Of a stretch of DNA of 64,000 bases, positions 38,190-41,100 are shown piece after piece (the first letter of the stretch is position 1; each line of letters opens with the position of its first letter). A program made the translations under genes and the position numbers. The notes under the pieces are model-generated. The model searched no databases. It had not been told where the DNA came from and saw nothing but the letters and a program-made list of their open reading frames with translations. The stretch spans positions 8,128,001 to 8,192,000 of the forward strand of contig JASGJH010000001.1 of assembly GCA_047601445.1 (NCBI GenBank), in the 5' to 3' direction. The stretch is from Myxococcales bacterium (GTDB lineage: Bacteria > Myxococcota_A > Polyangia > Polyangiales > DASUME01).

Positions 38190-41100
38190 ATGCAGACGCG
38201 TCGTCATCGACACTTTTGGATCCTTGCCCTGGCGTTGTTCGCAGCGTCACCGGTGTACGCGCAGGAAGACCCGGACGCCGACGGCGACGGTGTTCCGGAT
38301 GAGAATGAGAGCCCAGGGGACACGGACGGCGACGGCAAGCTCGACGTCAACGACAGCGACGACGACGGCGACGGCATCCCCACGGCAGAAGAGCTCGTTT
38401 CTGGCAACGCGGACGGCGACGAATGGCCTGACTTCCGGGACCCGGATGACGACAACGATCATGTGCTCACCAAGAACGAGCTCGGCATCGGAGGCTGGCA
38501 GACCCCGCTCAACACGGACGGCATCGGCGCACCCGATTACCTGGACGATGATGACGATGACGACGGCGCGCCCACGGCAGAGGAAGTCTGGGACGCGGAG
38601 TGGGATCCGGACCGACAGATCTACGATCCGCTGACGCAGGACACGGACAAGGACGGCATCAAGGACTTCCGCGATGCCGACGACGACGGCGACACCATCC
38701 CGAGCGAGCTCGAGACCGAGTACTTCGTTTCGGGGACCGCGTATCCGATCCCGGACACCGACAACTATCCGGGTGACCAGGACAACGACAACCAACTCAA
38801 CGCGGTCGATCGCGACGACGACAACGACGGCATCCTGACCAAGGACGAGCTGGGACCGAACGGGTACACCAATCCGCGCAACACCGACGGCACCGGTCTC
38901 CCGGACTATCTCGACGACGACGACGACGACGACGGAGAGTCGACCGCGGTGGAGCTCTCCACCAACCCGGAGCCAGACTTCAACGGGAATGGCATCCCGG
39001 ACTATCTCGACCCGGAAGCCAAGGGTTCCCAGGCGGATCCGCCGCCTCTTTTGGTGCCCGGTGCCGATGCCGACGACGACGGCGTCAGCAACGAGCTCGA
39101 GGACCTGAACCGCGACGGTAGATACTGGAACGACAACACGGACGGCGACAAGCTCGCGGACTACGTCGATGACGACGACGACAACGATGGCATCAAGACC
39201 ATCTACGAGAAGGGTGATCCCGCGAATCCTCCGGATAGCGACGGCGACAAGATCCCGGACTACCTCGACCCCGACGATGACGGCGATGGCGTGCTCACCA
39301 AGGACGAGCACCCCGACGCCAACGGCGACGGCGATCCCAGCGACTATCTGTCCACGGCCAGCGCCGAGCCCAACTATCTAAACCCGGACGACGACGACGA
39401 CGGCAAGTCCACCTTCGACGAGCGCCCTGGCGGCCTCGACGTCGACAGTGATCACGATGGGATCCCGGACTACCTCGACGAAGACGATCTGCCGAGCAGT
39501 GGTGGTCCCACCGACGGCGACCTCGACACGGACGGCGACGGCATCCCCGACAAGATGGAGATGCCCGGTGGCGTGGCCGTCGACACGGACGGCGACGGCA
39601 TCCCCGACTACCTCGATCCCGACGACGACGGCGACGGCATCCCCACCAAGGACGAGGGGAAGGGCGGCGGCGTGGACACCGACGGCGACGGCATCCCGGA
39701 CTACTTGGATCCGGATGCAGACGGCGACGGCATCCCCGACAAGATGGAGGGCACCGGCGACAGCGATGGCGACGGCGTTCCCGACTACCTCGACGACAAC
39801 GGTGCGGGTATGGCCGACGCTGGAACCTCCGGCGGCGGTTCGGACGCGGGCGGCGGCGGTAGCGGTAACCCACCGCTCGGCGAGAAGCCCCAGACCAAGA
39901 AGTCCGACAGCTGCAGCGTCAGCGCGCCCGCGAGCGCAACGTTCCCTGCCTTGAGCATGTGGAGCCTCGTGCTGGCCGGTGTGGTGTTCGCGGCGCGACG
40001 TCGCCGTGCACGCAGCGCGCTGGCCATGGTCGCCGGTGCGCTGCTCATGCAAGCCTGCGGCGATGACACCGAGCCCCCCTCCGAGGGCCTCTTGGGCGGC
40101 GACGGCGGACACCACGAGCCAGGGCACGACGCTGGCTCGCAGCCCGCGGACAGTGGCATGCCCGAGTCGGACGCCGCGACCGACGCCGGGCCAACGAGCT
40201 CGGTCACGCCCGAGTGCACGATAGAGGACGGCTCCTTCCAGGTGGAACTGCCCGCCGTGGAGGGCTCCCCTTGGGCTTCCACGCTGCAGGGAGACACCTT
40301 GCACCTCGCCTACCTTGGGCGCAGCTGCGGCACGGCCGAGAACGTCACCGGCACGGGCGTCCGCTATCAGACCTTCCGCGTCGCTGGCGGCACCGTCGCC
40401 GACATCGACAACATGGACGGCGACTTCTGTCTCACCACACTCCACCCGGCGGTGTCGGCCGACAGCGGCGGCGCCACGGTGTTCTACAGCTCCAATCTCG
40501 AAAACGGCATGGAGCTCTACAGCCACAGCGCGAAGCCGACCACCGGTCGCAACCGCCTCACCTTCGACGCCGACTCCGGAGGCGACCAGGAGGTCCTCAC
40601 CGTGGCCGAGACCTTCGGCGACGCCGCCTTGCTCGCGTACGCGAATCGCCAGGGCAAGCAAGGGCCCTTCCAGATCGTCACCGCGCGCCCGAGCAACTTC
40701 TCGGAGAACGAGATCGCGCCCGCCTCGCTCGACTACCGGCCCACGCAGCTCGCGCTGCTCGGCCTCAAGAACGCCGGCGCGCTGGCCTGGGTGAGCAGCG
40801 GCGACACGCAAGGTTCCATCGTGCTGCAGCCGCTGGCTGCCAACGGCAAGGCCTCCGGTGCATCGGTCGTGCTCAGCGATCAGGTCGGGAGCTACTCCGG
40901 CGTCAGCTTCGGCGCGCTGCCGGATCAAAGCGCTGCGGCCGTGGTGTACAGCGTCGCCCTTGCGGGCAACACGCACGAGTTGCGCTTCCGTGAGCTCGGT
41001 GCGGATGGCGCGCCGACGGCTGACGAGGTCAAGCTCACCAGTGGCAACCGCGACGCCTCGGGCGTGTCGCTGGCCCCGTTCGCCGCCGGCTACGTGGCCG

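Follow-up and report, generated by a model that had tools for sequence, protein, structure and literature searches.

In a Myxococcales genome (G000, assembly GCA_047601445.1), a protein built like a MYXO-CTERM substrate is joined to one built like an SPase II lipoprotein in one open reading frame. Read from its sequence, the feature is real, conserved and general, and neither signal lies where the definition of its class places it. We propose that the precursor, P0001, is probably cut twice, which would give two lipid-anchored proteins. The gene lies in a window of 64,000 nucleotides, the whole stretch of DNA that was analysed.

Layout of the fused gene

P0001 is encoded by a single frame at 38190-41318 (+) that runs for 1042 aa without a stop, giving a precursor of ~109 kDa. 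It consists, in order, of a signal, ~515 residues of Asp-rich repeats, a linker rich in Gly, Cys575, hydrophobic residues 587-602, RRRRAR, a further hydrophobic stretch (609-622) that runs into MQA-C, GDD with an acidic linker, and a 370-residue domain. Kyte-Doolittle hydropathy gave three peaks only, the N-terminal signal and the two junction helices. The features of the window that bear on the fusion are as follows.

38190..41318, + strand: whole fused ORF, P0001 (reading frame; fused orthologue L031:3287-6316, P0005, in G027)
38190..38261, + strand: Sec/SPase I-type signal peptide, residues 1-24 (by eye, from a basic start, hydrophobic residues 9-23 and VYA/Q; hydropathy)
38262..39800, + strand: Asp-rich DxDxDG repeats, TSP3-like by eye (25 motifs; no Pfam match)
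39912..40013, + strand: internal MYXO-CTERM-like tag, comprising Cys575, spacer, TM1 587-602 and R603-R608 (TIGR03901; orthologue over cut-off; tag terminal in split orthologues)
39996..40058, + strand: internal lipoprotein-type signal, comprising the shared Arg cluster as n-region, h-region 609-622 and MQA-Cys623 (sequence and hydropathy; stand-alone homologues begin with such a signal)
40200..41315, + strand: predicted beta-propeller, after the acidic linker (homologues, AlphaFold2 model and structural matches)
32933..38143, + strand: large upstream predicted lipoprotein, 1736 aa, VWA-like (by eye; neighbour also in G027, G076 and G038)
41451..42356, + strand: downstream fatty-acid desaturase (PF00487; neighbour also in G027 and G076)
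24587..24730, - strand: case 1, a second tag and lipobox junction in a 2228-aa ORF, P0002 (Met retained; either a recent fusion or an indel in the assembly)

The residues quoted in the original prediction agreed with the translation, and the span that it had marked, 39912..40058, runs in one frame from Cys575 (nt 39912) to Cys623 (nt 40056-40058). It had noted the lack of a Met at the junction and had assigned the Arg cluster as the n-region of a second signal. The first observation was borne out: the closest Met residues are M590, within TM1, and M613, within the second hydrophobic stretch. The n-region assignment agrees with the layout, in which RRRRAR directly precedes the h-region 609-622 and the lipobox Cys623.

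Asp makes up 25% of the N-terminal half, which likely binds calcium through its repeats. The description of these repeats as TSP3-like holds by eye, with 25 DxDxDG motifs, and finds no Pfam match, though low complexity may defeat the filters used. Matches to BamM and phytase were set aside as due to Asp-rich composition and to the tag.

The C-terminal domain had been called propeller-like, and an AlphaFold2 model from a five-sequence alignment was an all-beta propeller (pLDDT 86, pTM 0.89). Its best structural match was CylK (Z 29.4; 334 residues aligned at rmsd 3.4), with lectins and WD40 propellers next at Z 21-26; with such a range of matches the fold says nothing on function. The proposed likeness of its repeats to the end of the 2228-aa protein did not hold up (BLASTP best E 2.7). 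Searches with the C-terminal 172 aa against metagenome contigs and with P0059 against genome contigs each returned no related locus, and a word-limited protein search with residues 560-1042 of P0001 gave back the query only.

The upstream predicted lipoprotein at 32933-38143 (+) has a DxTxS motif that looks VWA-like by eye, along with beta-rich units that are repeated, and no Pfam or NCBIfam match. Our guess is that both halves of P0001 act in adhesion or calcium binding beside this large VWA-like protein.

Both signals at the junction have recognizable parts

The tripartite MYXO-CTERM build is present, with Cys575, a hydrophobic helix at 587-602 and an Arg cluster at R603-608, followed by about 430 further residues. 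TIGR03901 scored the tag at 18.8 bits in the genome scan and 19.1 bits as a peptide, under the cut-off of 20, and it scored relatives over the cut-off, at 24.8 bits for the tag of the fused orthologue in the congener G027 and 22.3 bits for the split copy in the congener G076.

Classical Sec/SPase II lipoproteins, the substrates of Lgt and LspA, have a basic n-region, a short h-region, a small residue before the Cys and an acidic tether after it. P0001 shares each of these (basic RRRRAR, h-region 609-622, lipobox MQA-C, acidic tether) and also has lipoprotein homologues, but its signal lies mid-chain, beginning at residue 603, and has no Met of its own. At -3, MQA-C has Met in place of the usual Leu, as do 5 of the 74 tag and lipobox junctions described below. 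The median length of the uncharged span ahead of the second Cys is 15 residues both in those 74 junctions and in 22 stand-alone lipoprotein homologues.

Two other profile assignments were tried and rejected. The midcut-by-XrtH family (NF033207), compared by name only, suggests a mid-protein sorting cut as here, but it belongs to an exosortase system and the junction scored 14.2 bits against a cut-off of 45. The invert_tail model (NF058595) scored 20.3 bits against a cut-off of 37 and gave weak matches in 14 of 14 control genomes.

The fusion is conserved in a second genome

We searched 301 genomes of the order with the C-terminal half; 61 matched, and reading frames were examined at the 30 best loci and in 11 longer regions. 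At the loci read, nearly all homologues were stand-alone lipoproteins with an N-terminal lipobox, usually of about 440-500 aa in this order. Long open frames in G036, G009, G178 and others proved to be non-coding read-through ahead of a lipoprotein start and were not counted as fusions.

The congener G027 has a matching fusion, in which the signal and the Asp repeats lead to the tag, four Arg, 13 residues, the Cys and the propeller, again with no Met. Its C-terminal half is 39% identical to that of P0001, and the junction sequence differs while both Cys and both hydrophobic stretches are kept. In the congeners G076 and G055 the two halves are separate overlapping genes, with an ATGA overlap in G076, and in G038, also a congener, the N-terminal gene is absent from this place. 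These two, in G000 and G027, are the only fused copies of the P0001-type gene that were found. In a tree of 18 C-terminal halves (midpoint root, one search) they paired as sisters (99/98), with branch lengths of 0.73 and 0.93 changes per column; the clade next to them held the split copies from G055 and G076, and all others were stand-alone. The simplest reading of these sequences is one fusion of an overlapping gene pair, retained through long divergence. The pair would likely have lost its stop and start codons in the process.

The overlapping split genes of G076 and G055 are also what would be expected if a long-read assembly error had deleted the stop codon between two normal genes of G000. 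We regard such an error as barely credible for P0001, because the independently assembled G027 carries the same fusion in frame; in addition, no leftover start codon or n-region is present at the P0001 junction, and junctions of this kind also occur in a closed isolate chromosome (L235). The original argument that the junction is not an artefact thus stands for P0001 on the strength of the second genome. It does not stand where it drew on case 1 as proof, which keeps a Met and is one indel away from an ordinary overlap.

The lipoprotein half could instead be made separately, beside the long product, from a start inside TM1. A GTG at V594 (nt 39969), preceded by GGAG at a distance of 4 nt, would yield a canonical pre-lipoprotein in G000. 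This reading is very improbable: no in-frame ATG, GTG or TTG was seen in TM1 of G027, and an N-terminal half made in this way would have no stop. A start with a Shine-Dalgarno-like 4-mer occurred at 4 of 46 junctions, G000 among them, compared with 10% of 727 background windows, and internal restart was rejected as a general rule on this count.

Other internal tags in the source genome

The original prediction had counted two independent occurrences in 64 kb. The P0001 junction holds as one of them, and case 1 is the weaker. The second gene's Met is retained, the DNA differs by one base or indel from a normal ATGA overlap between two genes, and no fused relative was found among 15 loci read from a 61-genome search, in which the N-terminal half (a trypsin domain with a tag) matched 34 of the 61 genomes. 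Ten tags were detected in the 14 foreign loci read, and all were terminal. Case 1 could reflect either a recent fusion or an indel.

The C-terminal half of P0002 (19592-24590, - strand) has a distant paralogue in a stand-alone lipoprotein of 2765 aa at 10971-19268 (-), with 26% identity over 492 aa (E 8e-12), and the shared region is present in two copies inside P0002. Elsewhere in the window, 2880-10904 (-) encodes a 2674-aa Rhs/YD-type protein with SpvB, TcdB-mid and FG-GAP domains and a C-terminal tip of no assigned family that resembles a polymorphic toxin, and 27296-29725 (-) encodes a beta-lactamase-family domain fused to a NamZ exo-N-acetylmuramidase as a single predicted lipoprotein.

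A third internal tag of G000 lies outside the window at C1:7499723, in the gene C1:7497905-7501585 (+), with an SPase I-type signal and then a TraB-like region behind it. This layout resembles that of MXAN_5598, and similar junctions are present in congeners (L081, L129, L151). Ten tags in G000 score over the TIGR03901 cut-off and ~31 terminal tags were found with an iterated own-genome profile; these counts are lower bounds because the iterated profile missed both window junctions and a strict regular expression missed case 1. The genome encodes a myxosortase core (NF040914, 123.5 bits, cut-off 100), LspA and two Lgt.

The junction layout is general across the phylum

A three-row junction profile run against the 301 genomes of the order, with 50 loci read, gave 26 further junctions of tag and lipobox. 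A 25-row profile matched 181 of 401 genomes of the phylum, many through a terminal tag only; at the best 30 loci we found 23 tag and lipobox junctions (including 4 rows used in training and 14 from genomes outside the class), two tags with an SPase I signal and five terminal tags. Against 1.84 billion representatives it gave 67 matches at E<=0.001. The original prediction pointed to a general mechanism, and for the layout the wide search bore this out with 74 distinct tag and lipobox junctions in ~37 family pairs across the phylum, a set that is partly circular because the collecting profile contains the lipobox Cys. These 74 came from 162 distinct classified matches, had a Met in two cases, and grouped into 38 combinations of an N-side with a C-side cluster, or 37 if one row cut by a contig end is left out.

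Some proteins have two or three internal junctions (P0003, P0007, P0012, P0013, P0025, P0061) and others have two modules with a tag on each (P0006, P0008, P0009, P0011, P0015, P0023, P0024, P0048). In multi-module proteins the tag and signal junctions are repeated and a terminal tag stands at the end. PEP-CTERM versions were found in P0029, P0031 and P0045, with eight stretches scoring 180.7 bits on TIGR02595 in P0031; in these three proteins PEP-CTERM tags, the tags of the exosortase system, lie in frame with SPase I-type signals, with up to ~8 modules per 2500-aa protein. The sequences therefore support a junction layout that is general across the phylum and includes what appear to be true multi-module polyproteins.

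We also examined samples chosen without regard to the lipobox. In 10 genomes of the genus TIGR03901 had 150 listed matches, from which 60 outside G000 were taken, in frames of ~500 aa or more: 48 were terminal, 11 internal and one cut by a contig end. With L043 and L081 added, there were 12 internal Cys-bearing tags, and a second signal followed directly in nine; by eye, two of these were lipobox signals, six SPase I-type and one ambiguous. In the remaining three (L157, L167 and L169, one family) no second signal follows the tag, and the chain continues as a long tail that is non-hydrophobic and probably cytoplasmic. An internal tag is therefore not always the joint of a polyprotein. Overlap with the start of a lipoprotein gene was seen for four of the 48 terminal tags, and such overlaps are raw material for fusion. 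One of the nine, L174 (G047:C161:1310-2050), has a tag and an SPase I-type signal leading into a TraB-like start with a stop 55 residues on, and is either a broken gene or an assembly frameshift.

The P0030 family was picked by whole-protein similarity and comprised 117 homologues including the query, at 26-71% identity: 97 fused, 19 N-terminal only with a terminal tag, and one partial. The tag Cys and a G/A-Cys after the second hydrophobic stretch were kept in all 97 fused members, in a family whose C side is Cys-rich and in which a few boxes are atypical. The second Cys lay 13-57 residues past the Arg cluster, and a Met was present in the loop in six of the 97. At the DNA level, 50 loci contained 51 N-half ORFs, of which 40 were fused, six stopped at the tag (three with the C-half as the next gene) and five were cut or unclear. 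The closed chromosome of cultured Labilithrix luteola DSM 27648 bears a fused copy (L235). This family of ~1400-aa proteins is phylum-wide, has no Pfam name and includes split forms (L204, L207, L223). P0030 itself combines an N-terminal lipobox with an internal tag and an internal lipobox, and would carry up to three lipidated Cys per precursor.

A model for processing of the precursor

We envisage that the N-terminal signal would route the Asp-rich half through Sec and be removed by SPase I. Transfer would be stopped by TM1 and RRRRAR, and TM2, with the Arg cluster as its n-region, would restart export of the propeller. By Sec topology rules this would leave both Cys575 and Cys623 facing the periplasm, the side where the enzymes act. 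Cys575 would then be lipidated and myxosortase would cut after it, giving a product of ~58 kDa that could reach the surface via type II secretion as for TraA. Lgt would lipidate Cys623 and LspA would cut before it, giving a lipoprotein of ~43 kDa, and a hairpin peptide of ~5 kDa would be discarded (masses approximate).

A single cut would also give two proteins, one of them held by transmembrane helices: myxosortase would free the N-terminal half and leave the propeller on the hairpin, or LspA would free the lipoprotein and leave the N-terminal half behind. The below-threshold score of the G000 tag and the weak lipoboxes at some junctions (Pro, Asn or Glu near the Cys) fit this reading, as does the lack of precedent, in the literature examined, for access of Lgt and LspA to a mid-chain site. 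Against it, both Cys are retained in all 97 fused members of the divergent P0030 family and in the two P0001-type genes, and we consider it unlikely.

The chain might also stay intact as an inner-membrane protein with two helices and both domains in the periplasm, its signals being relics of fusion. The topology is compatible, TraA persists uncleaved in mrtX mutants (PMC11980579, accessible text), and relic motifs would be expected following a recent fusion. By the tree, however, the fusion is old, yet both Cys remain. The second stretch is also short for a stable membrane helix, with 13 residues between Arg cluster and Cys in G027 and 17 or fewer uncharged residues before the second Cys in 66 of 74 junctions. 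Finally, barrel/OmpA domains of the outer membrane, which must exit the inner membrane, are also found behind this junction (L081 matches TraB). An intact chain is improbable on these grounds, and we favour cleavage on both sides of the hairpin.

The original prediction held that the fusion serves to make two anchored surface proteins at 1:1. Two anchored proteins are what the signals would lead one to expect; the stoichiometric purpose is not supported, because congeners manage with split genes or lack the adjacent N-terminal gene. Tolerated fusion of co-transcribed genes accounts for the data as well as a selected 1:1 ratio does. We propose that fusions may recur because both processing pathways still function mid-chain.

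Relation to known sorting systems

The accessible text of PMC11980579 reports that MrtX cleaves the tag, requires its Cys and works in E. coli, and in it Guo, Haft and Wall propose lipidation and type II export. Like the substrates of the MYXO-CTERM/myxosortase system (TIGR03901, NF040914; TraA, MXAN_4924), as described in the available part of a preprint (10.1101/2023.06.07.544157), P0001 has the Cys motif, helix, Arg cluster and N-terminal signal peptide, and a myxosortase is encoded in its genome; it differs in that the tag lies 420 residues from the C-terminus and the Arg cluster also provides the n-region for a second signal. The words internal, lipobox, polyprotein, fusion and lipoprotein do not occur in that part of the Haft preprint.

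Internal tags are said to occur "in rare cases" in PMC11980579, in whose accessible text only MXAN_5598 of Myxococcus xanthus (adhesin, tag, barrel/OmpA) is discussed and N-terminal processing is proposed. MXAN_5598 resembles P0001 in having an internal MYXO-CTERM and in being a probable two-gene fusion whose N-terminal part is proposed to be processed and surface-anchored. Its C-terminal part, in contrast, is a beta-barrel/OmpA domain, it is called rare or atypical, and no second signal peptide, lipobox or multi-module form is mentioned in that text (PMC11980579), where 'lipobox' occurs once, in another sense. In P0001 the second signal is of the lipoprotein type, and the layout is common. 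A 2026 preprint, in its accessible part, describes SgmI and MXAN_2562 as a split pair of tag protein and barrel.

Our literature search found no paper on the tag and lipobox junction or on its multi-module forms, with some relevant papers and Table S1 of PMC11980579 outside its reach, and none in the literature examined that showed Lgt and LspA acting on a mid-chain lipobox. The earlier description of the arrangement as undescribed is therefore too broad for an internal MYXO-CTERM, already in print for MXAN_5598, and holds within this search for the lipobox junction and the multi-module forms.

Other precursors offer partial parallels. The single fbcH gene of Bradyrhizobium japonicum reportedly encodes a precursor, FbcH, of both cytochromes b and c1, and Haloferax is said to have an internal archaeosortase substrate. 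These share with P0001 the making of two proteins from one gene, or an internal sorting signal, and the use of housekeeping membrane proteases, but they are single cases with one cut and not a recurring junction with two cuts and two lipids.

Taken more broadly, and with confidence only slightly on the favourable side, the sequences suggest a secreted-polyprotein module that is general in bacteria. A C-terminal sorting tag and the next signal peptide would be joined through a shared Arg cluster. Membrane proteases with housekeeping roles would cut the joint much as a viral polyprotein junction is cut, with myxosortase or exosortase acting at one side and LspA or SPase I at the other. In Myxococcota and in PEP-CTERM bacteria a single gene would string together some two to eight envelope proteins, and Lgt and LspA would act on mid-chain lipoboxes.

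Implications

If the double cut takes place, Lgt and LspA would act on a signal that lies 600 residues from the start of its chain, and myxosortase would likewise cut mid-chain. The idea is cheap to test because the junction spans ~50 residues and myxosortase is active in E. coli (PMC11980579, accessible text). The two oppositely oriented Cys on one hairpin would offer a handle on whether Lgt lipidates MYXO-CTERM, and the junction could be used as a cassette to co-export a pair of anchored proteins encoded by one gene. With two cuts, many of the long 'hypothetical' proteins of myxobacteria, now read as single membrane proteins with two helices, would in fact be two or more surface proteins, and lipoprotein predictors would overlook their second halves.
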